NCBI GenBank assembly: GCA_046318155.1
Contig: JBKCUU010000101.1
Coordinates: 1-14,105, forward strand
Length of the DNA stretch: 14,105 bases
Direction: 5' to 3'
Origin: Bdellovibrio sp.
GTDB lineage: Bacteria; Bdellovibrionota; Bdellovibrionia; Bdellovibrionales; Bdellovibrionaceae
The notes beneath the pieces are model-generated. The model ran no database searches. It saw nothing but the letters and a program-made list of their open reading frames with translations, and was not told the DNA's origin. Position numbers and translations under genes: made by a program. Position 1 is the first letter of the stretch; every line of letters starts with the position of its first letter. This document shows positions 1-14,105 of the stretch, piece by piece.

Positions 1-2
1 GT

Positions 3-1040
3 GTTATTTATGGTGGTGCTGAAATTAGCCCTCAATTTCGTGAACTTGAAAAAGGTTGTGATTTTTTAATTGCAACTCCAGGTAGATTAATTGATATGTT
101 TGATAGAGGTAGAATTTCACTTGCTGAAACAAAATATTTAATTTTGGATGAAGCTGATCGTATGTTGGATATGGGATTTGCTCCGCAGTTGCGCGAAGTC
201 GTGAATCATTTGCCGAGAAAACGGCAGAATTTGCTGTTCTCGGCAACTTTTCCCGCCGCACTGATCAAGCTCACGCGTGAATTTATGCACGAGCCCACAC
301 GTATTGCGGTCAAGGGTGAGCAAGCATCGCCCCGGCAAATCACGCAAAAGACTTTGGATCTGCGTCCGGATCAAAAACCAGCGGCCCTTCTTAATGAGCT
401 GGACAAGCGCCAAGGCACTCTTCTGGTGTTTGTTCGCACTCAGCGCAACACCGAAAAAATTGGCAATTACTTGCTTGATGCCGGGAGCGACGTTTCGATT
501 ATTCATGGTGGGCGTTCGCAAGCTCAGCGCTCGCGTGCTTTGCAGCAGTTTCGTGATGGTCTGACTCGCGTTCTTGTCGCAACAGATGTCGCGGCACGAG
601 GCTTAGACGTTCCTCACGTCGAGCACGTGATCAATTACGACCTCCCTGAGGTTGCTGAAGATTACGTTCACCGCATTGGTCGTACCGGAAGGAACGGAAA
701 GTCAGGACAGGCGATCTCTTTCATCACCTCGCACGAGCGTGGTTTATGGAAAGCCATTGAGCGCCTGATGAACCCGCACCTGAAAGATCAACCTGAGCGT
801 TTTCAACCGGATCGATCACTGAACCAAAACACCCGCTCTGAGAAGAGCCGCACCGGCGCCTTTGGATCAAACCGCAATGGCTATAAATCCGTCGCCGAAA
901 AACGTGGCTATGAGCGTCCTCGCGGAGCTGAGGCGCGCTCGGCTCGCCCGGACCAGAGAGACACGAGCGATCAACCCCAGAGATTTGGTGGGCGCCGTCC
1001 TGCGAAACCCGCAAACAATAGCATTTTCAAAAACGGCTAG
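3..1040 (+). CDS. DEAD-box ATP-dependent RNA helicase (RhlE/CshA-like C-terminal part), 5'-truncated at the window edge
   Basis: Frame is open from nt 3 (VIYGG...), upstream of the ORF-track Met at 96. Motifs in order: GG, TPGR, LDEADRMLDMGF (II), SAT (III), LVFVRT (IV), HGGRSQAQR, ATDVAARGLD (V), YVHRIGRTGR (VI), then a basic low-complexity tail. Q motif and Walker A lie outside the window. Confidence 0.96.
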   Translation, partial: VIYGGAEISPQFRELEKGCDFLIATPGRLIDMFDRGRISLAETKYLILDEADRMLDMGFAPQLREVVNHLPRKRQNLLFSATFPAALIKLTREFMHEPTRIAVKGEQASPRQITQKTLDLRPDQKPAALLNELDKRQGTLLVFVRTQRNTEKIGNYLLDAGSDVSIIHGGRSQAQRSRALQQFRDGLTRVLVATDVAARGLDVPHVEHVINYDLPEVAEDYVHRIGRTGRNGKSGQAISFITSHERGLWKAIERLMNPHLKDQPERFQPDRSLNQNTRSEKSRTGAFGSNRNGYKSVAEKRGYERPRGAEARSARPDQRDTSDQPQRFGGRRPAKPANNSIFKNG

Positions 1041-1078
1041 ATCGCTGACTTCATCGACAGTTCAGTGGTGAAGAGTTA

Positions 1079-1127
1079 GGCGATAAACTCGGCTTTCCTA
1101 AAGGCTTGATTTATCGTCGTTTTTTTT
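1079..1127 (+). terminator. Rho-independent terminator downstream of the helicase
   Basis: GGCGATAAA (1079-1087) pairs with TTTATCGTC (1110-1118), with a bulged inner stem at 1089-1109, followed by G and a T8 run (1120-1127). Confidence 0.8.
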
Positions 1128-1221
1128 GATAGTCGACCATTCCAACCTGATCCAAAGTCCTCAAGTTTCTAACACCTTTTTTCATCATTTGCCAAAATGG
1201 AGTGAGTAAATGGATGTCACA

Positions 1222-1238
1222 AACGGGAGGACTCCGTT
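1222..1238 (+). promoter_or_regulatory. Shine-Dalgarno site (GGAGG) of the Hint lipoprotein gene, within a small hairpin
   Basis: GGAGG at 1226-1230, 8 nt before ATG 1239. AACGGG (1222-1227) can pair with TCCGTT (1233-1238), leaving an AGGAC loop. Confidence 0.7.
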
Positions 1239-4058
1239 ATGAGTCAAAAGAGAACGAACCTCTTACTGGTCTCAGGACTATTGGTACTACTGGCTGGCTG
1301 TAATCAAGCGCCAAATTCGAGCCCAAGCCTCGAAGAGGGCATGAACAGCGCAATCAATTGTAAGTCCGGGACCGGGCCCGTCGATCCTAGTGAGCTTGAA
1401 ATTCGCGGAACGGTCGCGCTTCAAAAAGGCGAGACCGCTCACTATCAACTCAGCCAGGACCTCAGTTGCTCGAACAGCCAAAAGGTTATCTGGAAGACGG
1501 TCGCCGTTGCGGGATCGAATCGCATCGGTTCAGAAATGAATTCGACCTTTAATAAAGTCGGGAATTATGTCATCAGCGCGCAAGTGCTCACGGCAAAATC
1601 AACGATCCCCTATGAATTGTCTTTTAAAACGACCGTCATCAATGATGCTCCCACTTTGATTGGTCCGCAAATCACGATGGTTGGTGTAGAGAACAATTTT
1701 GACCTCGGTATTCCGAGCAACATGGACGTTGCCTCAGTCGACTGGAACTTTGGCGACGGGTCCGCCGTTCAAAACAGTCTTGGACCGCTCACGCACACCT
1801 ACGGCAGGGCCGGAACCTATCAGATGTCAGTGATGATTAAAGATGGCGCGGGTTCGGTCACGACACTGAATCGCAGCCTGCTTGTCTTGCCTTTGCAGGA
1901 TGGACAGGAATGCGTTTACCAGCTTGGAGTTTCGGGACCTTATGAAGTGACGGTGGGACAGCCGGTCTTGATGTCAGTTTTTATTCCCTCGTGTGTCTCT
2001 TCCAAGGTCACCGCGATCAGCTGGAACTTTGGTGACCAGTCGCCTTTGGCTTCAAACCAAACTGTTGAACACACTTTTACAGAAATCGGCGCATCGACCG
2101 TGACTGTTCAGCTGTTTACGACTTCAACGACAAATCCATGGGTGACGCTCACTCACAGAGTAAATGTGATTGCTAAAATCGAAGTACCATCACCCACGCC
2201 GACTCCTGGGCCCACGCCAGATTTAAACGAATGCCCCTTAGCGGGACAACAGCGCCAAGGCAAAAGCGATCTTTATTCAGAGACTGAAGCTTGCGGTGTG
2301 AACGGAACCAAGATCAAGTCCTTCCGTGACGTTGTGGTTGATGAGTGCCGCAATCAAAGTGGAATTTTAAAATGGATCGAAGTTTCTAAAAACAAGGAAC
2401 TTCAAAGCGAAGGTGCCTGCCAAGGCTTAGCTTGCGAAGTTCCTGCGGCCTCGCTGTCTGGAGTCGATCCCCAAGGTGCGGGTTTTTCCTTGATTAATGG
2501 CAAGTACTACCTTTTGGATGGAGCAAGCAAGACGTTCTTCTCTTCGACTTCACCGACCGGATCATGTGCGTCAGTTTCTGAATCCCGCAGCTGCGCAAAT
2601 GGCCAGCTCGGTGGATCAAGCGCGCACCAATTTTTGAACTGTAACAATGGCTGCGAAGGTTTTGGCTTGCACGGAACGGTTAAGACTGGAGTCACAACTG
2701 GCGAGATTAAAGTCTCGCTCACTTGTGGGTTTGGCGAACAAGGATTCTTCAACTTGTTCCACCAGGTTTCGGATCAAACGTGCCAAAACGGGCAGATCCA
2801 AACGACGAACACGCGCCAAGGAGACTTAAAAACGGCAGGTTCTTGCCCGACGTATTCGCATGTTGGAACAGATGTTTGGTCTGAGTGTTCGGACAATTGC
2901 GGCGGCAAGCAAACACGAATCTTTCAATGTCAAAGCAACTTAGGGGACGTCGTTAGCAGTGACCGCTGTGTTGGAGCTGCACCCTCTGACGAGCGTCTGT
3001 GCGATGCAAATCCAGCTGCGGTCGCGCGCGAAGACCGTGAGACGTCTGTCGAGGAAGCCGGCGCCTCGAACCTGTGCCCGGCCAACCAGATCGGTGTCAT
3101 CATCAACAAGCGTGATGTGACTTTGATCAAGTCTTATGCCTGCATTGAGCACTCGGTGCAATTGGCCGGGACGCAAACGACTTACGGTGCTTGGACGACT
3201 GAAAATTACTGCCGCAATTACGTTCCGAACCGTTGTAATCATGACAGCTTGAGCAATACCGAAGCCAAGGGTCGCTACAAATGGATGCAGAAGTGCCGCT
3301 CTCAAGTTCCCTTGATCGAAGAGTTTCTGACAAAGTTTGATGATGTGAGTGTCGAGACGAAGAAAAAAGGGCATTACGGTATCGACGAAGGTAGTCGCTT
3401 CTTGTACCCCACCTTTATGGACCGCTCGAAAATGCCTGAAAAAGCGTGGATTGCTCCTAAAGGAGAAGCCGGAAGCTGCACTGTTCCCTCTAGCGTTTAC
3501 GTTGCGGCCGTCTGTGTGTCTTCATGTGCGACTCCTGAGCAGCAGATTCTGACGCAGGTCAAGAGTGAGAGAATGAAGTACTCAACCTTTATCGAAGCAT
3601 TGACTCAAAAGCATGATTTCGTCATGACTTTACAAAGCAGCAGTTCGATCAGTAGCAAAGACCTCCAGAAAACTCGCGTTGAGAATTGGGTGACCGAGCT
3701 TTTGGACACCGAACATGACATCTTGATTTTCAAAATGAAGTCAGGTGGACAACTTAAAGTGACGCCAAACCACCCACTTGTCTCGGGCGATGGTCAAATG
3801 GTCATGGCTCGCGAGTTTAAGGTCGGTCAGTCCCTGGTCCGAGTGGGCGGTCAGGGCGATCAGATCTTGTCGATCACGCCAGGCAAGCATTTTGGCAAGG
3901 TCTACAACGTTTTCGTGAAGTCGGCCGATTTGCATAAAAACATCGTGGTCACAAATGGATACTTGAACGGGACGGCATTTTATCAAAATGAGGGCGCTAA
4001 AAATATGAACCGCGACCTGTTCCGCCAGAAACTTGTTCGAGGAGTTCTTGAAAAATGA
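1239..4058 (+). CDS. Lipoprotein with PKD/Ig-like domains, Cys-rich/TSP1-like modules and a C-terminal Hint (Hedgehog/intein) domain; putative autoprocessing surface adhesin
   Basis: Lipobox LAG-C21; PKD signatures WNFGDG/WNFGDQ (W169, W262); linker PSPTPTPGPTP; TSP1-like WSECSDNCGGKQTR; Hint block A (SS|C763-ATPEQQILT), block B (LKVT842PNH845PL) and block F (GKVYNV...NIVVTNGYL). Confidence 0.88.
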   Translation: MSQKRTNLLLVSGLLVLLAGCNQAPNSSPSLEEGMNSAINCKSGTGPVDPSELEIRGTVALQKGETAHYQLSQDLSCSNSQKVIWKTVAVAGSNRIGSEMNSTFNKVGNYVISAQVLTAKSTIPYELSFKTTVINDAPTLIGPQITMVGVENNFDLGIPSNMDVASVDWNFGDGSAVQNSLGPLTHTYGRAGTYQMSVMIKDGAGSVTTLNRSLLVLPLQDGQECVYQLGVSGPYEVTVGQPVLMSVFIPSCVSSKVTAISWNFGDQSPLASNQTVEHTFTEIGASTVTVQLFTTSTTNPWVTLTHRVNVIAKIEVPSPTPTPGPTPDLNECPLAGQQRQGKSDLYSETEACGVNGTKIKSFRDVVVDECRNQSGILKWIEVSKNKELQSEGACQGLACEVPAASLSGVDPQGAGFSLINGKYYLLDGASKTFFSSTSPTGSCASVSESRSCANGQLGGSSAHQFLNCNNGCEGFGLHGTVKTGVTTGEIKVSLTCGFGEQGFFNLFHQVSDQTCQNGQIQTTNTRQGDLKTAGSCPTYSHVGTDVWSECSDNCGGKQTRIFQCQSNLGDVVSSDRCVGAAPSDERLCDANPAAVAREDRETSVEEAGASNLCPANQIGVIINKRDVTLIKSYACIEHSVQLAGTQTTYGAWTTENYCRNYVPNRCNHDSLSNTEAKGRYKWMQKCRSQVPLIEEFLTKFDDVSVETKKKGHYGIDEGSRFLYPTFMDRSKMPEKAWIAPKGEAGSCTVPSSVYVAAVCVSSCATPEQQILTQVKSERMKYSTFIEALTQKHDFVMTLQSSSSISSKDLQKTRVENWVTELLDTEHDILIFKMKSGGQLKVTPNHPLVSGDGQMVMAREFKVGQSLVRVGGQGDQILSITPGKHFGKVYNVFVKSADLHKNIVVTNGYLNGTAFYQNEGAKNMNRDLFRQKLVRGVLEK
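2187..2219 (+). repeat. Pro-Thr linker-coding repeat (PSPTPTPGPTP)
   Basis: CCCACGCC occurs twice (2193-2200 and 2211-2218); separates the PKD region from the Cys-rich region. Confidence 0.75.
3525..3974 (+). other. Hint domain within the 939-aa lipoprotein (about C763-T912)
   Basis: N-terminal Cys nucleophile, TxxH motif at 3762-3773, block F VYNV at 3900-3911. Ends NGYLNGT instead of the intein-type ..VHN|C/S/T. Confidence 0.85.
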
Positions 4059-4825
4059 AAACGATGATTTTTCGCTCGCTGTTGATAGTTGCCGGCATCG
4101 GAACGATTTTTGGATTCGTCGGTTGGAATCATCCACAAAGTCCCGGCAAGGAGGCTGGGCCACTTTCTCCGTTCAAGGTGAAAGGCTCTGTTGCCAGTAA
4201 AAATCCCGTGCTCATCTCTCAGGATAAGCTTGGGGAAATCGCTTCGGCAGTGACCGATTCCAGCGATCTGGAGAAAGTCCAAGGGCCGCGGGCGGTGCCC
4301 CTCAAACATGAAGTCCTTGAGGCTTATGCCTACCGCGATCAAATTGAAAGTTTTCGATCGCTCAGCAAAAAAGTCTTTCTCAGCGACGAGGAACGCAGAA
4401 CTAAGCGCGAGTTGCTCGAGAGCAAAGATTTTCTAAAGTCGTTGGCTGGCCTTTTAAAAGTCGGAGCCGGTCAGAGTACCGAGATGAAGCAAACGCAAGA
4501 TGCCGCGCTGGACGTTTTGTTCGAGTCTCTTCGTGCCGACCAAGCGAGCCCCGGCGTCGAGGTTTTAGCTGAAGTTGTCAGCGACGGGCAGATTGAAAAT
4601 GAGGCGACGGATATGGTAACCAAACGTGACCTTGCCGGTGTCAAAGCTGAGGTGCTCTACTACTGGTCTTCGCTTGATCCGGCGAGTGCAGGCCGCATCG
4701 AGCAGGCTTTACCCGGTCCCATCAGCCGCCGGATTTGGGAAAACGTGATCTCGGTTCAAAAAAACAATCTCGCCGAGTCGACTCTCGAGGCCGCAAGTTA
4801 CCCCGCATTTGCTGACGCGCTCTAA
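4055..4825 (+). CDS. Hypothetical exported or membrane-anchored, probably alpha-helical protein coupled to the Hint lipoprotein gene
   Basis: 256-aa ORF; ATGA start/stop overlap at 4055-4058; N-terminal basic + hydrophobic segment (MKTMIFRSLLIVAGIGTIFGFVGW), Pro/Gly/Ser linker, Cys-free charged body. No family recognised. Confidence 0.82.
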   Translation: MKTMIFRSLLIVAGIGTIFGFVGWNHPQSPGKEAGPLSPFKVKGSVASKNPVLISQDKLGEIASAVTDSSDLEKVQGPRAVPLKHEVLEAYAYRDQIESFRSLSKKVFLSDEERRTKRELLESKDFLKSLAGLLKVGAGQSTEMKQTQDAALDVLFESLRADQASPGVEVLAEVVSDGQIENEATDMVTKRDLAGVKAEVLYYWSSLDPASAGRIEQALPGPISRRIWENVISVQKNNLAESTLEAASYPAFADAL

Positions 4826-4863
4826 ACCAATAGTAATGTAGGTCCACGAGGTCAAGTTCGGAT

Positions 4864-4894
4864 CAAGAATCCGTCAGTTTATGGCGGATTGTTG
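4864..4894. terminator. Stem-loop between convergent genes, possible terminator
   Basis: AATCCGTCA (4868-4876) / TGGCGGATT (4882-4890), extended by CAA/TTG after one mismatch. U-tracts are weak on both strands. Confidence 0.45.
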
Positions 4895-4922
4895 GGTAAA
4901 TGACGTCCAACGAGAGGGCGGA

Positions 4923-6218
4923 TTACTGACGGATTGTGACGGGAACCATGTCGATCGCGAACCGTGCACCTTGTTGGTAGTTGTATTCAACGTCACCAGA
5001 CAATTTGACCGAGTTGTTATCGGGATCATACAGCCAGCCACCTTTCTGTGATTGAGCGATGATCTGACCTTTTCCCTGCGCCAAAACTTCGGGACTTCCG
5101 TAGCGAACACGCAACATCAAAGTGCCATTGGCATCTTGACGAGGTCGCTGAGGCAAACGGATGTCTTTCGCCAAAGTTTTGATCGAGATGTCCGCCCCAA
5201 TTTTTGCCAAGTCCTTGCCGAAGTCAGTCTGGACAAGGCTCATAATGTGCTGAGCGCGAATATCTGAGGGCGAACCTTGGCCTTCATTCGCTGCCAAGAT
5301 AAAATTCTCGAGACGGTCAGGACCAAAGCCCTCTTTGCACTGACCGTTGTTCTTAGCCGTCGTCACCTTGCGACCATTGCGACCCGTGGCTTGAACAAAG
5401 TCGAAGCACTCAGGATGGTATCTTTCGTGAACACGAAGACCCCAGTCTTTTTTATCCTCGGGATCTGATTTTTTGACCAAAGCGCCGTAAGCCGACACTT
5501 TCTCGCGTTTGCCAGCTTTAAAGTTAATCAACTCTTGAGCCATTTGTTCGGGAGTGATCGAGGCTGTCGAGTCATCCGCATCAGAAATCATCACGACCAC
5601 CAGTTGGGCGTCTTCTCGAAAAAAGTCCTTTGTATCGGGGTTGTCCGCGGTGTTTTTCAACGTCGCTAACAAGGGTGAGAACATTTCTTCCCTCTCAGGT
5701 CCACCCTCGGCATAAGGGGCGATCCCAATTTTTAACGTGGCGGCTAAAACTTCGGAGGCCCCTTGAAAGCGAGAAACGAAGCGGCTTTTTGAGATTTGGC
5801 CGCTGGCGTTCTTCAATTTGCGAAGCTCGCCAATGGCATACCCATCTTTTTTGGTTTTGACGAAGCGCTCTGAGGAGTCCCAGACCGACACAACACCGAT
5901 GTGGTAATCAATCATCTTGTTTTTTTGAAATGCATCAACAAAGCGATTAATATTACGGCTCAAGTTCTCTTGAGCGCTCTTCATCGACTCAGAGTTGTCC
6001 GAAACAAACAAAATGTCCACTTTAGGATTAAAATCCAATTCGCTTTGACCGCCATCCAGGGTGATCCAACGAATTTGATCCGCCGGAATCGGGTCGTATT
6101 TTGGAATGATTGGTTTTTGTGGCGGTGGAACGTCCCGACGACCCTGTACGGTCGCTGTTTCTGGGCTGCAGGCGGCCAGAAGCGTCATCGCCATAATGGG
6201 TAGAATTAGGTGTTTCAC
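4923..6218 (-). CDS. VWA/MIDAS-domain lipoprotein, CglB-like adhesin
   Basis: Start revised to GTG 6218 (GTGA overlap with upstream stop; GGAGG 5 nt upstream). Lipobox MKHLILPIMAMTLLAA-C17; VDILFVSDNSESM gives MIDAS DxSxS (5985-5999); downstream FFREDAQLVVVMISDADD; last gene of a glt-like operon. Confidence 0.85.
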   Translation of the reverse strand: MKHLILPIMAMTLLAACSPETATVQGRRDVPPPQKPIIPKYDPIPADQIRWITLDGGQSELDFNPKVDILFVSDNSESMKSAQENLSRNINRFVDAFQKNKMIDYHIGVVSVWDSSERFVKTKKDGYAIGELRKLKNASGQISKSRFVSRFQGASEVLAATLKIGIAPYAEGGPEREEMFSPLLATLKNTADNPDTKDFFREDAQLVVVMISDADDSTASITPEQMAQELINFKAGKREKVSAYGALVKKSDPEDKKDWGLRVHERYHPECFDFVQATGRNGRKVTTAKNNGQCKEGFGPDRLENFILAANEGQGSPSDIRAQHIMSLVQTDFGKDLAKIGADISIKTLAKDIRLPQRPRQDANGTLMLRVRYGSPEVLAQGKGQIIAQSQKGGWLYDPDNNSVKLSGDVEYNYQQGARFAIDMVPVTIRQ

Positions 6219-7282
6219 ATTCTCCTCCGAATATTTTGCGGGCAAGAATTCACTTTGACTTGGTACTTATCGAGCTCGTCCATCCAAGGGTGGCCATCAT
6301 CCGGGAACACCAATTGGTCTGCACCGACTTGAGCAAACTGACCCTTATGAAAAGATTCGCGGTCCATTTGGCGGTCTGAGTGGATGCGCTGAATGGTTTC
6401 AACTTCAATCAAGTTGAGCTTTTGCAAAATTTTAAAGTTCTGCTCGTTCTCGCGAGTCGCCAATTGCTTCAAACGAGTTTCTGCCGAACTTTGTCCGCGG
6501 GCCGCGATTTTTTGCAACTGAGACAAGGCTGACTTGGCCTTTGCTGATAACTTCGGCTGAGCTTCTAGCACGGGGATCGCGGTCGCTGCCAACTTCATTT
6601 CAAGCACTGCGCGCTGAAATTTGACGTCCCGAAAAAAGAGACGGGGCATGCTTTTCGCAAACTTGCCGGCTTGATCAAAACTCAAGGGAAACTGATCTGC
6701 TTTTTCCAACAATTTTGCCAAGGCTTCCGATTTACCCGACTCTGACAATCTTTGAAGATCAACCAGACGTTGCTTTTGCGTCTCTTTGAAAAGTTTGTGC
6801 GTCTCGAGGATTCCTTTGTAGTCGCAAATTTTCAATTGCGAGAGCGATTGCAAGAAAAAGGGCTCTGAGCCTACGATCGACAAAAAGGGAGCACTTAAGA
6901 GAGTTTTAGTTTGAGCCAAAGCTTTCTCAAAGTCCTTTTCGCGATGGTAGGCCCAACCTTTCTCTTCAACGGCCTCGAGCCACCAATCAGAGCCTTTGGG
7001 AACTTCGTTGTACTTCACCAAAGCTTGATCGAGCTTGTTCGCAGCAAAGAGGGACCGAGCCTGATTCATTGAATCGCGGGCGGCAGTTTTTTCTTGGTTC
7101 AGAGTGCGCTTGGTGATTTTATCAAAATCAAGGAGGGCGTCGGCTTGCTTGGGTTTTGATGCCAAAGCGACAGCGAGGTCTTTCGACCAAGCCTTCACCG
7201 AGAAGGTCTCGGCCCGGCTTGTTGTCGCCGTACCAAAAACAAACGCGAAGATGAAGAGGGGCGAACCTAGTCTTGGGATCAT
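6215..7282 (-). CDS. gltC: GltC-like periplasmic TPR-like protein
   Basis: Signal peptide; WLEAVEEKGWA...AL...TLLSAPF...E...LKICDY core and C-terminal FPDDGHPWMDELDKYQVKVNSC match the GltC family pattern; directly follows a Glt-type beta-barrel gene with an ATGA overlap (7279-7282). Confidence 0.78.
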   Translation of the reverse strand: MIPRLGSPLFIFAFVFGTATTSRAETFSVKAWSKDLAVALASKPKQADALLDFDKITKRTLNQEKTAARDSMNQARSLFAANKLDQALVKYNEVPKGSDWWLEAVEEKGWAYHREKDFEKALAQTKTLLSAPFLSIVGSEPFFLQSLSQLKICDYKGILETHKLFKETQKQRLVDLQRLSESGKSEALAKLLEKADQFPLSFDQAGKFAKSMPRLFFRDVKFQRAVLEMKLAATAIPVLEAQPKLSAKAKSALSQLQKIAARGQSSAETRLKQLATRENEQNFKILQKLNLIEVETIQRIHSDRQMDRESFHKGQFAQVGADQLVFPDDGHPWMDELDKYQVKVNSCPQNIRRRM

Positions 7283-8076
7283 AGTAAGAATCCCAAACCA
7301 AATGTTCCAACAACCGTGTCGATATTGCGCGAACCGGTGATGATTTGGTCTTTGTAGTTTTGGTACCGGATTTCAGCTCGGGCCGAAAGATGTTTGGTCA
7401 TCCAGACGCCCAAGCCCGCACCGCCTGTCAAGATAGGAGCAGAGCCTGATGACATCTGAATTTGTCCACCACCAGCGAGCAAGTACATGTCAAATTGGGC
7501 AATGCCCCAGTCCATCAAATTGGTTTTTCCGTAAATAGGGTACCAATTCAAAATCGCCATCGCCGAATTCAAAGGATAGTCAATGTCTGGAATCTGGTAG
7601 CTACGACCGCCAGCTTCGTACGCCGCTTTCGCCTGTTCAAATGAACGGCGTCCTTCGGGCGTCAAATCATTGCCATAGTCATAGTAACGAACACCGAGGG
7701 ACCAGCGTGGAGTGAAGTGAAAGTCAATCGAAGCACCTAAGCTTTGAGTCTTCATGTAAGCATCGCCACCAGCCACGCCGCCATAGCTTACGCCAAGCTC
7801 AAAGCGGTTGTACCGATCAACCAGTCGACTTTGTACGATGCGCGCGCGGTTATCTGGATCCATCGAGCTGGCCATTTGAAAAAGAGCTTCGTTGCCACCA
7901 AGAGTATCAACGTCTTGGGCGACATTGATCTTTTTCTCGATATTCTTCTTTGGTGATTGTTGAGCTACAGTCTTCTTAGCAGTCGGACGCGGCGTTGATT
8001 TTACGGGTTTCGCAAAGCCGACCGAACTCGCTAAGAGTATTGTCAGAGTCAAAAGGCTGACAGATTGAAGTTTCAT
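7279..8076 (-). CDS. Outer-membrane beta-barrel protein, GltA/GltB/GltH-like
   Basis: Start revised to ATG 8076 (ATGA overlap 8073-8076, AGGTG upstream, signal peptide MKLQSVSLLTLTILLASSVGFA). Amphipathic beta-strands, family-typical WYPIYGK and FDMYLLAGGG motifs, terminal strand VVGTFGLGFLL. Confidence 0.88.
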   Translation of the reverse strand: MKLQSVSLLTLTILLASSVGFAKPVKSTPRPTAKKTVAQQSPKKNIEKKINVAQDVDTLGGNEALFQMASSMDPDNRARIVQSRLVDRYNRFELGVSYGGVAGGDAYMKTQSLGASIDFHFTPRWSLGVRYYDYGNDLTPEGRRSFEQAKAAYEAGGRSYQIPDIDYPLNSAMAILNWYPIYGKTNLMDWGIAQFDMYLLAGGGQIQMSSGSAPILTGGAGLGVWMTKHLSARAEIRYQNYKDQIITGSRNIDTVVGTFGLGFLL

Positions 8077-9479
8077 CGTGCACCTACTTGTTGAGGACGA
8101 ACGGCTTGAGGAGCCGCGCATCCCACTTTTTCTTTTTTTGAGCGAACCGTGTTCAAAACTTGTTGAACGGGTTCGGAGTTGCGGCCAGCAATCACGGCCG
8201 TTGCTGACATCGAAATCTCTTGTTTGAGCTCGGCATCGGTCGCTGCGCAAGGAACGTTCCACTCAAGAACACATTCTTGTTTTGCTGGCTTGTTTATGAC
8301 CGACTTGCAGGCGATTTTAGGAGCGCCGACCAGAGTCTTGAGGTCGGGGAGCTCGAGCTTAACTGTCGAAGAGGCATCAGCTGAACTGACGATGAAGTTA
8401 AACTTCATTTTCTCGCCAGGGGTGAGCTCAAGAGCGGGTCCCGTCAAGCCTGCGAAGTCAAAGCGGGGAGCTGACACGGGTCGGTTCAGACCAATTTTGA
8501 CCAATTTCAAAATTTGGGGTGTCACAGTTCCAAAGGGGCTTGTGACAAGCAGGTTGAAACGGACATTCGAAGTCGCCGACTGCGATAAAGTTTGACCGCG
8601 GCTATCCAAATCAGGGCGAGCCGAGATATTTTTCGTGTCAAAAATCAGCGAGAACTTCCATTTCAGGTCGCCAACGTAAATCGCTTCACGGGCGGTTGGA
8701 TCGATCATCACATGGCGAGTTCCATCTTGCTCAAGGTAAGCGACGCCAGCTGTTTGACCCAAGTCATTAAAGACCGTCAGCATCGGCTTGCGAGGAGCTT
8801 GTCCATCGATACCGGGGATTTTAACGGTCACTTGAAACTTGGTGATGGTGCCTTCGGCAACTTCAGCGCCCAGGCCCTCGATGGCAAGTTCCGTCGGAAC
8901 CGCTTGAGTGCGTTTGACTTGTAAGGTGACTTCGCGCTCGCGAGTGATTCCAAACAAAGCCTTTTTCACTTTCTCGCTGGGAGTCTCGGTCACTTCGATT
9001 CCAAACTTCACGTCGATTTCTTTTAAAGAATCATTCGCTGGGACCGTGTAGATTTTAGGAGTCCAAGTCAATAGGTAGACATCTGCTTCGGTCGGAGATT
9101 TCTCGAGCTTCGCACCTTCGGGAAGATTTTTCGCATTCAAGCGAACTTTCACTCCCGCGATTGTCGAGCGCGCGCCGACTTTATAAGTGGCAGGCATTCC
9201 TTCAGTAAAAACCAGGCGGCGATCAGGAGAGATGATCAACGCGTTTTCATCGATCGTTGCTTGCTCACGCACGACTTCCACCGGTTTTTCCACAATGATG
9301 GTCTCGGTGCGAGTCTCTTGTTTTTCGGGGCCCTTCTCGAGTTCTTTGCGCCCGTTGTCACGGTACGTGTCGATGTTCTCAACGGGGTGCTTTTCGTATT
9401 TGCCGCAACCTAACATCACAACAACTGATAAAGTTGTTAAAGAGAGACCAAGAGTTGTTAAGAAATTGACTGTTTTCAT
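8073..9479 (-). CDS. Lipoprotein with beta-rich Ig/cadherin-like domains, function unknown
   Basis: Probable start is the second ATG (9479; AAGGA 6 nt upstream), 9485 also possible. Lipobox-like VMLG-C; NLPEGAKL...YLLTWTP resembles bacterial Ig-like repeats; roughly three domains starting FTEG/VAEG/LTPG; four Cys in the C-terminal domain. Confidence 0.78.
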   Translation of the reverse strand: MKTVNFLTTLGLSLTTLSVVVMLGCGKYEKHPVENIDTYRDNGRKELEKGPEKQETRTETIIVEKPVEVVREQATIDENALIISPDRRLVFTEGMPATYKVGARSTIAGVKVRLNAKNLPEGAKLEKSPTEADVYLLTWTPKIYTVPANDSLKEIDVKFGIEVTETPSEKVKKALFGITREREVTLQVKRTQAVPTELAIEGLGAEVAEGTITKFQVTVKIPGIDGQAPRKPMLTVFNDLGQTAGVAYLEQDGTRHVMIDPTAREAIYVGDLKWKFSLIFDTKNISARPDLDSRGQTLSQSATSNVRFNLLVTSPFGTVTPQILKLVKIGLNRPVSAPRFDFAGLTGPALELTPGEKMKFNFIVSSADASSTVKLELPDLKTLVGAPKIACKSVINKPAKQECVLEWNVPCAATDAELKQEISMSATAVIAGRNSEPVQQVLNTVRSKKEKVGCAAPQAVRPQQVGAR

Positions 9480-9492
9480 AAACATTCCTTCC

Positions 9493-10770
9493 TTACCGGC
9501 TGCTCACGCGGCGGAGTTCAAAGGGATACAACACGTCCACATTGACGCTGCCAACGGGGCGGGGAAACTGCCACGTGCGCATTTTAGCGACCATGCAAGA
9601 TTCAACTGACTTTGATTCTAAAGAAGACTGAGCCACCTTGGCTGAAGTGATGCGTCCATTCGAGCCGATCGTGAAATCAACCGACACACGTCCACGCAAA
9701 TCGGGTTCGCGTTGCAGACCTTGCTCATAGCAGTAAATGATCTGACCTTTATGCCGGTTGATGACCGCCGCGATTTGATCCCGGTCTAAGCCGCCTTCGA
9801 CAAGGGCTTCTTCAGACATCGGAAGGCTTAAACCAGAAGTTCCACCAATCAGCGAGATTTTGCCGTAGCCAGCTTTGCCGCCGCCAGCACCTTTCGTGCC
9901 GTAGCCGCCTGCTGATTGCGCGCGCCCGCCGCCACCCGCAGAGCCTGCGATCAAGCCAGATCCAGGCATCATTCCGCGGATCCCGCCAGAGCCCGCATCA
10001 CCAACTCCGCCGCCGCCCGAACCAACGCCAGCAGATCGAATGTTTTTAAGAGACTTCGAATCAAGGCCTTCGGCATTGCGTGCGCCGGTCTTGATCCCGC
10101 CTAAGGCTGCAAGTGCACCGACGCGCTCCAGTGAACGCTCGGGAGCATTGCGAACAGCTGAATGGTATTTGGGAGTCACGGGTGGAGCTTTGCGAACGAT
10201 GTTGCGAGTGACGATCTTCGGCTTTGTCGTGCGGTCCGCAACTTTGGCTTTGGTTTTTTCCTTGATCGGCTGGATTTTCTTCTCGGAGACCTGAACGCGC
10301 TCACGAACAGCCACTTCTTTTTGTGGGATCACGATCGTAACCAGTTGAGGCTCATCTTTTTTCTGCGTGAAGTAACCAACAAGCGCCGAAACACCGATCA
10401 TCAATACAACGGCAACCAAGTGCCCCACCGCAGTTTTTTTCATCACGTTTTTAAGTTGTTCTTCGTCATCTTCAACCGCAAGCTCGTAAGATGGTGTGTT
10501 GATCTTTTCGAGCTCTTCAGCCATGCGCAAGCGGCCAAGTCCCGTTAGAGAGACGGAACCTTTTGTTAAAGTCGACATCGTGACGGTTTTTAGAATTTGA
10601 TAATCAATTTGAGAGTCATTAAGACCAGAGAGGTCCGAGAGGATTTCAACACGTCGGTTGTCCAAGCGGTAGATGACGTGCATTTCAGCTTGACCAAGGT
10701 TGGACTCCACTTGAAAAGCACGGACCTTTTGGCCCAGTTTGTTTTCGAGAATCAGTCGTCGTGCCGTCAT
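9493..10770 (-). CDS. gltG: GltG-like (AgmX/PglI C-terminal, TonB-C-like) inner-membrane transducer
   Basis: Start revised to ATG 10770 (GAGG 5 nt upstream). Cytoplasmic N-domain, single TM helix with His, Lys/Pro-rich then Gly-rich linker, C-terminal GGLDRDQI...YCYEQGL..P.L.GRV...WQFPRP...V.V.YPF; follows gltF. Confidence 0.85.
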   Translation of the reverse strand: MTARRLILENKLGQKVRAFQVESNLGQAEMHVIYRLDNRRVEILSDLSGLNDSQIDYQILKTVTMSTLTKGSVSLTGLGRLRMAEELEKINTPSYELAVEDDEEQLKNVMKKTAVGHLVAVVLMIGVSALVGYFTQKKDEPQLVTIVIPQKEVAVRERVQVSEKKIQPIKEKTKAKVADRTTKPKIVTRNIVRKAPPVTPKYHSAVRNAPERSLERVGALAALGGIKTGARNAEGLDSKSLKNIRSAGVGSGGGGVGDAGSGGIRGMMPGSGLIAGSAGGGGRAQSAGGYGTKGAGGGKAGYGKISLIGGTSGLSLPMSEEALVEGGLDRDQIAAVINRHKGQIIYCYEQGLQREPDLRGRVSVDFTIGSNGRITSAKVAQSSLESKSVESCMVAKMRTWQFPRPVGSVNVDVLYPFELRRVSSR

Positions 10771-10783
10771 ACTCACCTCTGTA

Positions 10784-10853
10784 GCGCCCGTGTTAAGGGC
10801 GCGGGGTTCACACCCGTTTTACAGGGTGTTGGTCACCCCAAACCAGGGGTGCC
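10784..10853 (-). promoter_or_regulatory. Three tandem stem-loops filling the gltF-gltG intergenic spacer
   Basis: Perfect 6-bp inverted repeats at 10834-10851, 10810-10829 and 10784-10802, directly upstream of the gltG Shine-Dalgarno site. Confidence 0.7.
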
Positions 10854-11141
10854 TTAGAAAGTCTGCCGCTCTTGGTCCTCTTTGAGGCGATCATCAAAGT
10901 GCTTTCTGGCACCGAGAAGATCCTCAAGGAACTTGTCATTTTCCACGGTCGCCGTTGTACTGGGCGAATTCTGGAACTTACCGTGGAGCGAACTTCCATC
11001 AAACCGAAACGAGGTCCCAAGTTTTGCTCGATCTCTCGAGGGACTAGCGTGGGCCTTCGTCTTCGAATTCGAAGAACCGGAAGCGGCGTTTGCTGCATGG
11101 AACATGAGCAAAGCCCAGGCCAAGAGAAGAATCGTCTTCAT
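10854..11141 (-). CDS. gltF: GltF/CglF-like small secreted protein
   Basis: 95 aa; signal peptide ending AANA; T.F.F....L.G....P...L...R..F...L pattern recalled for GltF; immediately upstream of gltG; ATGA overlap at 11138-11141. Confidence 0.72.
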   Translation of the reverse strand: MKTILLLAWALLMFHAANAASGSSNSKTKAHASPSRDRAKLGTSFRFDGSSLHGKFQNSPSTTATVENDKFLEDLLGARKHFDDRLKEDQERQTF

Positions 11142-14104
11142 AGTGCTGTCCTCTTCTGAGTTTGAATTAAGCGGCCATCCAAGTATGAAATCATCAAGGG
11201 ATGGCCAATTTTTGTTTCAAGGTTTTTCAATTTTTCAATTGCTGCGATATCAGAAGGGTTTTCGCTCACCAAATCGCGAGCCGCCTTCAAATCACGAGTG
11301 CTTGGCGTCGATGCTTCAAGCGCATTTTCAAGTTGGGAGCGCAGCTCTGAAGTCGGCGCAAGAGCCGCCAGGAAACGGGCCTCTTGTGCCAAATAAGGGT
11401 GAACTTCAGGACGCGCCTTCATCAAGTCCTTGATCAAAGCCTGGAGTGCTCGCTGATTTTTCCAGAACTCTGACAACTTTTGCGAGGCAAATTTAGCTTT
11501 CACCAAGAAGGGCTTTGCTTGCTGCTTGAGTAAGTTGCCATAGCGGACTTGTTCATTGGGTTTGAGCCCCTTGGGCATCGGTGTCTGGAGCAAATCTTGA
11601 GTAAAGCGTTCATTTTCGCGGCTCATCGTGGTGAGTGCCATCACTTGGGCCGTGTAATCACGCAGACGGATGGCTTCAGACAATGACGTTTCAGCCGAAT
11701 TCAAGAGCTTCACGCGCTCTTGAATCGTGCGGCCCATTTGACGGTCATTCGACGTGTTTAACTTATGAGCAGACAACTTTTTGTCCAAGTTCAAGTGGGC
11801 TTGGTAGAAAGGCTGCTTTTTGATGAATTGAATTGCGGCCATGCGCTCGAGGCTACGGCTATTGAGGAAGCTCTCGAGTCCACGTGTTGAGTGGTTACGA
11901 GCGTAGACCAACAAAACAGTCTCGCTCAAAATTTGGGGTGATCGCGAAAGGCCTTTGGCTTGCTTTTTAAGTTCAGCGACCGTATTGCCTGCGAGCAAGA
12001 CCAAGCGGCTACGAACCGAAAGTTCGCTCGAACCACGAAGGCCGGCTCGAAGAGCGGCCTCGTAATGTTTCTGAGGACGAACGCCGCCCAAGTCTGCCAA
12101 AGTCGCTAATTTTAATTCGCGCTCAGCTGTTTTAAGTTTGGGGAACTTCATGCGCAAGGCCGTCTCGTAAGCCGACTTGAATTCGAGCTTTTTCTCGAAA
12201 TAACCCACCTGGCGAGCCAAGGCTTGTTCACGGTCTTCACTTGAGAGCGATTTGATCGCCAGGAGTCCTGCGATTGAAGCCAGCAGCGCTTTTTCGTCAC
12301 TGGTCTTCTCGGCAAGCACACTCATATTTCGGTAATGAATCATTTTTTCCGAATCAGAAGCACCGGCAAGGTTCGCCGTCTGCATCTTTTCGAGTGCCTT
12401 TTTGAGTTCGCGCGAAGACGAGCTGGTATCATTCGCCGTCAGAGCCACTTGGTTGGTCAGGGCTTTGCGCGAAATCTGTTGGAACTCGAGCGCGTGAGCA
12501 GGAAATACCAGGGCGTACTCATTTGCCCAGGTCTCGAGATCCGCATCGCGCTTTTGAATCGCCAAGGCGTCCAAAGAGAGATCCGCAGACTTTTTGCGCA
12601 AATCCGCAGGTCCCGCTTTTTCCAAAGCTAAAGTTCGGAACGAGTCCGCCGAACCTGACCAGTCTTTGCGGTCATAAGCGACTTGAGCCCATTGATAGCG
12701 AACGTTGTAAGCGTTGGGACCTTTGGGCATCAAGCTCAGGTAATGTTTGTAAGCAAGCTCACGGCGCCCGAGGTCTTTTGATTTCTCGGCGGCTTCGATT
12801 TCGCCCATCAAGGCCATTTCGCGTAGTTTATCTTCTTTAGCCGTTCGAGCAGCTTCGTGGTACATCGAGGCTGCTATCTCATGTTTGTTCAAATCAACGG
12901 CAACCTGAGCGCCAAGAACGGCCATCTCGGTCTCTTCAGGGAAGGTTTTCACATAGATGTCGTACGCGCGCAAAACGATGGAGTCCGGTTTGACCTTTTT
13001 CGAGCGGTGAACCTCTGTTACATAACGCTTCATTTTCTTTTGCAGCTCGAGGCACTTCGCATCGTCAGAGCAGCGCACTTTCTTATAGGCTTGAGCGGCG
13101 AGGGCAAAGTCCTCAATCGAGTCTGCAGAGCCTTTGTCATAATTGGTCTGAGCGATGAGCACCATCACTTCGAGGTGTTCATCATTGGTCAATCCAGGAG
13201 TTTTTAAGTACGCACGGTAGATTTCAGAGGCCGCTTGTTTTTGACCTAGGCGGTCCACTTCGCCAGCAAAAAAGAACAAGAGCTCTTTGCGCTGGCTGTT
13301 TGAGGCCAGCCCTAGAGGCCGACTGTTTGGAATGAGCTTAACAAACTGTGCGATCTCTTTTGAGGTCACGGGCCTGCGCGAGTAAAAAGTGGCCAAATCA
13401 CGCAAAACATCGCCTTGAAAAGCGACGTCCGCGACGACGCCAGTGGCTGTTTCTTTTGTTAACAGAGCGGGCGTCTGCGCCAAAGATTGTAAAGTCCAAA
13501 TCGCGAGAGCTAAACGGTCCAGGTTAAACTGGCACCAAGCGATGCGGTACTTGATCAAACCTTTGTTCAAAGTTTGCGAATCTTTCATCGCGATTTCGTA
13601 AGAAGCCAAGGCCTCTTTAAACTTTCCTTTTTGAAAAAAAATATCGGCAAGGGCTGTCCTTGCGCGAGTGACGACATCAGCGCTGTAAACCCCTTTCTTC
13701 GCTTTCAAGATGCTTTCAAACAAAGAGATCGCTCTGGCTTCATCGCCCGCGATTTCAAATAAGTGAGCCATTTGAAACATGATCACGCCTTGAGTTTGAA
13801 TGGGCGTTTCTTTTTGAATGGCTTGATAAATTTTAATCGCGCGCTGGCGGTCGGCCGATGAACCTTTGCAGTCCTTGCAGTCCGCTTCGATCTCATTCAT
13901 AAAGCGCAAACGAGCGCGCTCGGCCAGAAGGTCAGCCATCCGCAAGTTCGAGCGGACCCACGAGGGGTCAGAAGTTTCCATGTTGGTCAAAATGCGGTCC
14001 AGCCGGTCAATGACTAAGTTCTGAGTTTCAGAATCCATCTTCTCCGCGAGTGCTGGCGCCGGGGCCATGCCCGCCAAAACTGCCATCAAAATCAAAGAGA
14101 AAAG
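11138..14104 (-). CDS. Large periplasmic TPR protein, GltD/AgmU-like; true start lies beyond the window edge
   Basis: Frame is open to the edge (LFSLILMAVLAGMAPAPALA|EK is a signal peptide missing its N-region). Many TPR-like helix pairs (e.g. ALADIFFQKGKFKEALASY, YRIAWCQFNL); C-terminal PMPKGL...E...Y...L.....P...KA pattern as in GltD. Confidence 0.8.
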   Translation of the reverse strand, partial: LFSLILMAVLAGMAPAPALAEKMDSETQNLVIDRLDRILTNMETSDPSWVRSNLRMADLLAERARLRFMNEIEADCKDCKGSSADRQRAIKIYQAIQKETPIQTQGVIMFQMAHLFEIAGDEARAISLFESILKAKKGVYSADVVTRARTALADIFFQKGKFKEALASYEIAMKDSQTLNKGLIKYRIAWCQFNLDRLALAIWTLQSLAQTPALLTKETATGVVADVAFQGDVLRDLATFYSRRPVTSKEIAQFVKLIPNSRPLGLASNSQRKELLFFFAGEVDRLGQKQAASEIYRAYLKTPGLTNDEHLEVMVLIAQTNYDKGSADSIEDFALAAQAYKKVRCSDDAKCLELQKKMKRYVTEVHRSKKVKPDSIVLRAYDIYVKTFPEETEMAVLGAQVAVDLNKHEIAASMYHEAARTAKEDKLREMALMGEIEAAEKSKDLGRRELAYKHYLSLMPKGPNAYNVRYQWAQVAYDRKDWSGSADSFRTLALEKAGPADLRKKSADLSLDALAIQKRDADLETWANEYALVFPAHALEFQQISRKALTNQVALTANDTSSSSRELKKALEKMQTANLAGASDSEKMIHYRNMSVLAEKTSDEKALLASIAGLLAIKSLSSEDREQALARQVGYFEKKLEFKSAYETALRMKFPKLKTAERELKLATLADLGGVRPQKHYEAALRAGLRGSSELSVRSRLVLLAGNTVAELKKQAKGLSRSPQILSETVLLVYARNHSTRGLESFLNSRSLERMAAIQFIKKQPFYQAHLNLDKKLSAHKLNTSNDRQMGRTIQERVKLLNSAETSLSEAIRLRDYTAQVMALTTMSRENERFTQDLLQTPMPKGLKPNEQVRYGNLLKQQAKPFLVKAKFASQKLSEFWKNQRALQALIKDLMKARPEVHPYLAQEARFLAALAPTSELRSQLENALEASTPSTRDLKAARDLVSENPSDIAAIEKLKNLETKIGHPLMISYLDGRLIQTQKRTAL

Positions 14105-14105
14105 T

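Follow-up and report, generated by a model that had tools for sequence, protein, structure and literature searches.

How the self-processing of a Hint domain is controlled, and what it serves, is the question raised by two overlapping genes of a predatory bacterium, Bdellovibrio sp. (GenBank assembly GCA_046318155.1). They lie on contig JBKCUU010000101.1, of which positions 1 to 14,105 were analysed; this whole stretch of 14,105 nucleotides is called the window. The first open reading frame (ORF), ORF1, encodes a lipoprotein with a C-terminal Hint domain and is, by sequence comparison, a full-length orthologue of Bdellovibrio bacteriovorus Bd2400 and a member of the C-type BIL/PPS-1 family. 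The second, ORF2, encodes a small partner protein. The reading that we consider moderately probable is an N-terminal self-processing of ORF1 which is gated by this partner, with ligation to a nucleophile of the cell envelope as the favoured ending. The two genes contain the following features (aa, amino acids).

1239..4058, + strand: ORF1, 939 aa, lipoprotein, Bd2400 orthologue (three PKD domains, stalk, PPS-1, Hint domain of a C-type BIL)
1239..1301, + strand: lipoprotein signal peptide with lipobox LLAGC and Cys21, read from the sequence
1380..2180, + strand: three PKD-like domains, aa 48-136, 137-220 and 226-314, from Pfam PKD_4 and hhalign
2187..2222, + strand: Pro/Thr linker, aa 317-328, read from the sequence
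2223..3224, + strand: cysteine-rich stalk, aa 329-662, with a TSP1-like repeat at 2874-3011 (aa 546-591)
3225..3524, + strand: pre-Hint domain, aa 663-762, taken as PPS-1, with four conserved Cys, shared with Bd2400 and the short forms
3525..3974, + strand: Hint domain, aa 763-912, with Cys1 (C763), TxxH (T842-H845, 3762-3773), N890 and G911-T912
3975..4055, + strand: post-Hint tail of 27 aa, aa 913-939, conserved, with a predicted helix and predicted partner-binding site
4055..4825, + strand: ORF2, 256 aa, partner, Bd2399 orthologue
ORF2 aa 8-24, + strand: N-terminal membrane helix, from hydropathy
4310..4798, + strand: HEAT-like helical domain of ORF2, aa 86-248, from the structure model

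Identity of ORF1

In a search with aa 640-939 of ORF1, 205 proteins were identified among 1389 candidates, the named ones being PKD or cell-surface proteins of the Bdellovibrio family; the predatory type of host that had been supposed from the DNA alone is borne out by these relatives. For P0071 (CAE80217.1) from B. bacteriovorus HD100, an identity to ORF1 of 46% over 927 aa and of 56% over aa 640-939 was found, with an identical domain order and the junction CVSS-C common to both. The quantitative PCR (qPCR) primers for Bd2400 printed in PMC11271337 match locus L026 with zero mismatches and translate to ATPEQQI and TMQSAD, both of which P0071 contains where its Hint domain begins. The primer match, the full-length alignment and the annotation thus identify ORF1 as the Bd2400 orthologue. 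The original prediction of an undescribed system, with no characterised protein of this architecture, therefore fails.

ORF1 also shows the traits of C-type BILs, which are homology to the founder over the Hint and the upstream domain, a PPS-1-type domain before the Hint domain, and a Hint domain with Cys1 and TxxH. PPS-1 occurs in C-type BILs (PMC9185962), and the pre-Hint domain of ~100 aa is most likely this published domain. Like Bd2400 with Bd2399, ORF1 forms a two-gene operon with its partner, and it differs from Bd2400 by its Pro/Thr linker and by 16 inserted aa within the stalk. In the literature searched, Bd2400 appeared only as a qPCR marker or an entry in gene lists. We take Bd2400 to be the founding subject of the 2009 work of Dori-Bachash on C-type BILs. 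For this protein, a signal peptide, PKD domains, secretion, processing in vivo and N-terminal autocleavage in vitro were reportedly described.

The anatomy originally proposed, with a lipid anchor, three PKD domains, a Pro/Thr linker, a disulfide stalk and a terminal Hint domain, agrees with sequence, Pfam, profiles and model. Pfam PKD was matched by two stretches (E value 4e-18), and the third, N-terminal PKD-like domain (aa 48-136) was linked to the other two by profile comparison (hhalign, 97% probability). TSP1_ADAMTS matched aa 546-591 with an E value of 1.4e-4, slightly below the Pfam cut-off. A lipobox-like motif is present in 79 of the 96 long homologues with a complete N-terminus.

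The Hint domain and its reaction

ORF1 gave weak hits to PT-HINT, Intein_splicing and TIGR01445, the last of which begins at residue 763. An AlphaFold2 model of aa 640-939, with a mean predicted local distance difference test (pLDDT) of 75.9, matches inteins, BILs and the Hedgehog Hint domain (Foldseek E 5e-9 to 2e-6; Z 17-18 and a root-mean-square deviation (rmsd) of ~2 A over 133-139 residues). Conservation was determined on 150 representatives, chosen as the best among 315 clusters with E values of 1e-30 or lower. Here, T/S842 and H845 are found in 150/150, N890 in 149/150, G911 in 148/150 and C763 in 145/148. The Hint fold that had been placed at Cys763, with structure prediction named as the means of checking it, is thereby confirmed by model and conservation.

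N890 aligns with the Asp of intein block F. T912 (model residue 273) superposes on the final residue of several inteins, so that G911-T912 replace His-Asn, and the +1 residue after the Hint domain is variable (A in 61, S in 29 and V in 17 of 150); splicing and C-terminal cleavage are thus unlikely. Since both the His-Asn of inteins and the second Cys of Hedgehog are absent, N-terminal cleavage is the likely reaction and splicing is not, and the earlier proposal of a self-processing between S762 and C763 without splicing is upheld, as judged from residues and fold. A cut at this position would release a fragment of 19.9 kDa and leave 79 kDa, as computed. Behind the Hint domain nearly all representatives contain just a tail of 24-54 aa and nothing functional, and this speaks for a reaction whose purpose is to activate the C-terminus. 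In this tail, Q916 is conserved in 148/150 and R929 in 133/150.

ORF1 contains 30 cysteines, namely Cys21, 28 others and Cys763, with none beyond it. The number between Cys21 and Cys763 is even, as it is in 67/84 long forms. In the pre-Hint domain, C686 and C747 are lost jointly in 8/150 representatives, while C666 and C759 are invariant, and 666-759 and 686-747 are the likely pairs. Because of the even count and this pattern of loss and invariance, Cys763 is likely to be a free thiol.

With inteins and A- and B-type BILs (including PT-HINT and BIL2), ORF1 shares the fold (Z up to 18.1) and the N-terminal motifs, but it differs in G911-T912, in the variable +1 residue and in its fixed place behind PPS-1. 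An intein was rejected, as the His-Asn/Gln followed by Cys/Ser/Thr is missing and G911 is so strongly conserved. Assignment as an A-type BIL or PT-HINT protein, for which His-Asn at the C-terminus of the Hint domain is diagnostic (PMC7765530), was rejected on the lack of this motif and on a PT-HINT score of 20.2, below the cut-off of 27.7. The likeness to Hedgehog comprises the C-terminal Hint domain (1at0: Z 17.4, rmsd 2.1 A, 135 aligned), Cys1 and TxxH without His-Asn, a helical extension after the Hint domain and an N-terminal product that is kept. In contrast to Hedgehog, ORF1 contains no Hedge domain, its tail has 27 aa, and the partner is encoded by a separate gene. Of the Hedgehog catalytic set C1, D46, T69, H72 and C143 (PMC12054796), ORF1 has C1, T and H, and lacks a Cys at the position of C143. 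An invariant acid equivalent to D46 was sought and not found among the 150 representatives, the nearest position being E/D in 100 and Ser in 48. The missing second Cys and the non-invariant acid weaken the case for a ligation to an alcohol.

A different C-terminal Hint domain (PT-HINT/Vint-like) is present in a 1032-aa secreted protein without PPS-1 from a family genome (L044:1476-4571).

ORF2 as the dedicated partner of the Hint protein

ORF1 and ORF2 overlap by the ATGA at 4055-4058, which bears out the coupling of the second gene. The co-occurrence of both genes, for which an analysis of the neighbourhood had been suggested, was observed in 29/29 family loci (the best 29 hits), in each of which the partner is located directly downstream of the Hint gene. 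In a sample of 151 family genomes, 47 matched the PPS-1+Hint profile, and a strong partner match was present in 45 of them; in the two others the Hint gene lies at a contig end. Strong partner matches were found in 0/104 family genomes without a C-type BIL, after three weak hits of the ORF2 profile there (E ~1e-4; G014, G046, G058) had been dropped as matches to the linker or the membrane helix. Four family genomes carry two Hint and two partner genes, copy for copy, and the genome of the window (95% complete) contains one of each.

The same was seen in a phylum sample of 301 genomes. Full PPS-1+Hint hits were obtained in 45 genomes, with eleven weaker or partial hits set apart, and the 41 partner genomes all lie within those 45. 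The partner is at most ~3.2 kb downstream in 41/43 matches, and an improved profile recovers it in 3 of the remaining 4 genomes. Among metagenome loci with at least 800 bp downstream, the partner was present within 3.5 kb in 37/45. A scan of the genome contigs with a single protein gave 1 locus, and word-indexed searches with ORF2 gave 5 and 8 proteins and missed homologues that were found by the genome searches.

In 2 of 260 Hint proteins (P0205, E 1e-37; P0245, E 5e-10), the partner domain is naturally fused behind the Hint domain and the tail, without membrane helix or linker. One protein of this pair is long-form and one short-form. A complex model of ORF1 aa 661-939 with ORF2 aa 84-250 reached a score of 0.84, versus 0.59 for the best control, with at least 89% of the contacts agreeing between runs and a partner pLDDT of at least 86; the score mark was reached by 116/157 solved complexes and 2/215 mismatched pairs, counts that apply only approximately to own alignments. 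The best-defined contacts are formed by R929, L932 and V933 of the tail in a groove that residues 194-202 and 223-234 of the partner form, and in the model the conserved R929 is positioned against E199, the most conserved partner residue (90/96). The model supports a binding of the post-Hint tail in the helical groove of ORF2, and the partner is likely to set where and when cleavage happens. The idea of a dedicated partner was thus strengthened by co-occurrence, fusions and complex model; to our knowledge, no other Hint family needs one.

Several points weigh against a gating by ORF2. The first partner profile was derived from neighbouring genes, which makes the positive counts in the family partly circular, and the relatives counted share kinship and are not independent. 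The partner is absent from 8/45 metagenome loci, most of them of high GC content, and is therefore not obligatory in cis. Both fusions are singletons on one contig each. An unrelated protein modelled with the partner still reached 0.59, which shows that the groove is sticky in the model. Finally, the membrane topology of ORF2 is derived from hydropathy and a simple motif test.

PPS-1+Hint genes without an adjoining partner were found at L096-L099 and L106 (high GC) and at L072, whereas the related high-GC loci L088, L094, L101 and L104 contain it.

Predicted fold and anchoring of ORF2

The ORF2 orthologue is P0147 (CAE80216.1, Q6MKJ1), with 40% identity over 158 aa. A proteome supplement from 2025 lists it under the name Bd2399 as an uncharacterised protein, detected by 3 peptides and not significantly changed; in the part of that table which was covered, Bd2400 is not listed. 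Searches of freely accessible papers gave no text on what Bd2399 does, on a partner of a Hint domain or, for these bacteria, on operons that combine Hint and MACPF genes. ORF2 has no hit in Pfam or NCBIfam, and of 30 family members at most 2 match any one Pfam family. In the structure model, a helix (2-24) and a disordered linker precede a confident all-alpha domain (86-248), which forms a HEAT-like solenoid of a generic kind (best Z 8.4, with an rmsd of 3.8 A over 122 aligned residues). A specific fold was not identified: Foldseek found no match with an E value of 0.001 or lower, Atlas matches scored below 0.9, and no PDB sequence matched under E 0.07. The family contains no invariant Cys, Ser or His which might serve as a nucleophile.

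ORF2 had been described as an unknown exported protein. Free export appears unlikely, since the N-terminal helix looks uncleaved, with an A-x-A-like signal site in 1/30 homologues. It is likely an anchor in the inner membrane, and ORF2 would then act in the periplasm.

A model for partner-gated processing

Hint domains with Cys1 and TxxH are established to form a thioester at the residue before Cys1. For ORF1, export and lipidation at Cys21 would come first, as suggested by the lipobox, and the 28 cysteines of stalk and PPS-1 would pair while Cys763 stays free, as parity and joint loss suggest. We infer that the two proteins meet in the periplasm, where the helical groove of the partner is predicted to hold the helix of the tail (aa 922-937). 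By analogy to known Hint chemistry, Cys763 with T842 and H845 would then form the thioester at Ser762. Because neither His-Asn nor a +1 nucleophile is present, no splicing would follow; the 20-kDa Hint domain with its tail would leave, and the anchored 79-kDa stalk would end in PPS-1. Within this model we lean, if only slightly, toward a resolution of the thioester by a small nucleophile of the predator envelope (a lipid head group or an amine) rather than by water. The module of tail and partner would position this nucleophile, as a split counterpart of the sterol-recognition region of Hedgehog.

The same first five steps might also end differently. ORF2 could be a dedicated foldase or retention factor, which holds the tail as a removable handle until 14 disulfides have formed and shields the free Cys763; hydrolysis of the thioester would then release the mature protein with its PPS-1 domain exposed and without an adduct. 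Lipase-specific foldases (Lif) consist of a membrane anchor, a linker and a helical domain, and are encoded beside their client. The topology of ORF2, with its disordered linker, and the position of its gene directly behind that of the client recall these proteins, but ORF2 differs from them in having no sequence match or listed structural match and in its generic solenoid. Lipase_chap had no Pfam match in the 30 members of the ORF2 family, and Lif is not among the listed results of the fold searches, which does not exclude a Lif fold. The absence of an invariant Cys, Ser or His from the partner and the lack of conservation of the Hedgehog transesterification residues would also suit a handle that is simply hydrolysed. 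However, the partner is retained in short forms that have just 2-4 cysteines ahead of Cys1, and Q916, N917 and N924 of the tail are strongly conserved although they are outside the listed predicted interface. We regard this ending as possible, though somewhat unlikely.

In another variant, the lipoprotein would span the periplasm from the outer membrane, and an amine of peptidoglycan or a lysine of the partner would resolve the thioester, resulting in a covalent link within the envelope. The N-terminal lipid anchor with an inner-membrane partner at the opposite end would fit such a tether, a Hint domain that ligates to lysine is known (BIL2), and K106 of the partner is located in the predicted interface and kept in 83/96. 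This residue is not invariant, however, the short forms lack a stalk and begin with an ordinary signal peptide, and the pair is dispensable. The secretion that the 2009 work is said to have reported also counts against a periplasmic tether, which we consider very improbable.

Expression and role in predation

Partner-gated processing would take place in the envelope of the predator itself, whereas the original prediction held that an external nucleophile, on prey or a surface, could be captured covalently. For this, the precursor would have to be intact at the cell surface, where the thioester takes a nucleophile from prey or from a surface, with the partner as a safety catch that is released on export. 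Expression is in line with such a role. Bd2399 and Bd2400 are described as an operon of two genes which is expressed in the attack phase and has a single start site, marked FliA, with attack-phase values in reads per kilobase per million (RPKM) of 185 versus 8.9 and 69 versus 5.7 for the two B. bacteriovorus genes (PMC3627812), and both genes fall to ~0.6-fold on prey entry (PMC2797640). The presence of MACPF/CDC-like genes beside the short relatives (18/27 chosen loci, see below) points in the same direction.

Fitness and distribution do not. In four transposon sequencing (Tn-seq) screens, W was 1.12-2.16 for EP01_RS08110 ('cell surface protein') and 0.74-1.91 for RS08105, with a defect threshold of 0.1 (PMC6561027); both were matched to Bd2400 and Bd2399 through the gene order seen in L051 (synteny), and neither shows a predation defect. 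These predation screens were pooled, so that a rescue by neighbours is possible. PPS-1+Hint is present in only 47/151 family genomes, with 18/35 in one genus and 7/35 in another, and a Bdellovibrio isolate without Bd2400 was reported (PMC5941755). The pair is thus accessory, at least in the laboratory. In addition, the thioester would need to survive export, the inner-membrane partner points to the periplasm, and the genome of the window contains no S8-like or MACPF-like homologue (0 hits with 7 queries). Capture of prey is therefore not supported by these data and appears improbable, and partner-gated processing within the envelope is retained as the preferred reading.

Upstream of ORF1, a FliA-type site with fewer than 3 mismatches to the published consensus was not found, and scans for sigma-70 promoters and terminators at the locus were at chance level only.

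Short relatives and a four-gene operon

Many relatives of ORF1 are short and consist of a signal peptide, PPS-1 and the Hint domain. The partner follows in 26 of 27 chosen loci (26 short or mid-length and 1 long). The gene directly behind the Hint gene codes for a subtilase-like lipoprotein in 21 of these loci, and 18 contain a protein in which a MACPF/CDC-like N-terminal domain precedes LRR and Kelch repeats. The serine motif is kept in 12/18 aligned subtilase-like proteins. The MACPF/CDC-like domain was assigned from the Atlas as sole support (feature score 0.96; template modelling (TM) score 0.5-0.6 to named MACPF models), with no Pfam MACPF hit and no PDB sequence hit.

A recurring four-gene operon (short PPS-1+Hint protein, subtilase-like lipoprotein, partner, MACPF/CDC-like+LRR+Kelch protein) was identified at L033-L038, L085, L102, L110-L112, L118, L119, L121, L122 and L127, and looks like a complement-style system. 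One subgroup contains a second small membrane-anchored gene (~165 aa) between the partner and the MACPF-like gene (L033:8917-9402, L034:8827-9318, L036:8688-9185, L118:8316-8816). PPS-1-like domains without a Hint domain adjoin complete PPS-1+Hint genes at L039:1115-1447, L105:3761-4321 and L105:4352-6085. At L115 (G339), a short Hint gene is followed by a fragmented subtilase-like gene, with no partner in 16 kb, and the operon is possibly decaying.

A broader and doubtful proposal is that C-type BILs are a two-component, Hedgehog-like ligation system. The HEAT-like partner, acting in trans and sometimes fused, would be the split adduct-recognition region, through which Hint cleavage is coupled to a covalent transfer of PPS-1 onto a nucleophile of the membrane or the cell surface. 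In the short-form operons, the thioester tag, the subtilase-like lipoprotein and the MACPF/CDC-like pore-former would constitute a complement-like weapon of predatory bacteria, of which the window would contain a stalked two-gene derivative.

Flanking genes

The 3' part of a gene for a DEAD-box RNA helicase is located at 96-1040 on the + strand, and the same gene is found upstream of the ORF1 orthologue in L001. Positions 4923-14095 on the - strand contain an operon of the adventurous-gliding type, which is ordinary for the group and unlinked to ORF1 in other loci. It codes for a TPR protein, a GltG/AgmX-like protein with a TonB C-terminus, an outer-membrane barrel (TIGR04565), a GltC-like protein and a VWA/MIDAS lipoprotein. 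Helicase and gliding-type operon were rejected as parts of the system, the flanks varying across 12 loci.

Significance for the C-type BIL family

ORF1 adds a new member to a family which was named in 2009 and has been little followed since. If proteins of the Bd2399 type gate or aim the reaction, studies of the isolated domain would have overlooked one of two components, half of the system; what the Hint reaction yields could be sought via bd2399 in a tractable organism. In other Bdellovibrionota, the link to MACPF/CDC-like and subtilase-like proteins is a lead to a possible antibacterial pore-forming system.

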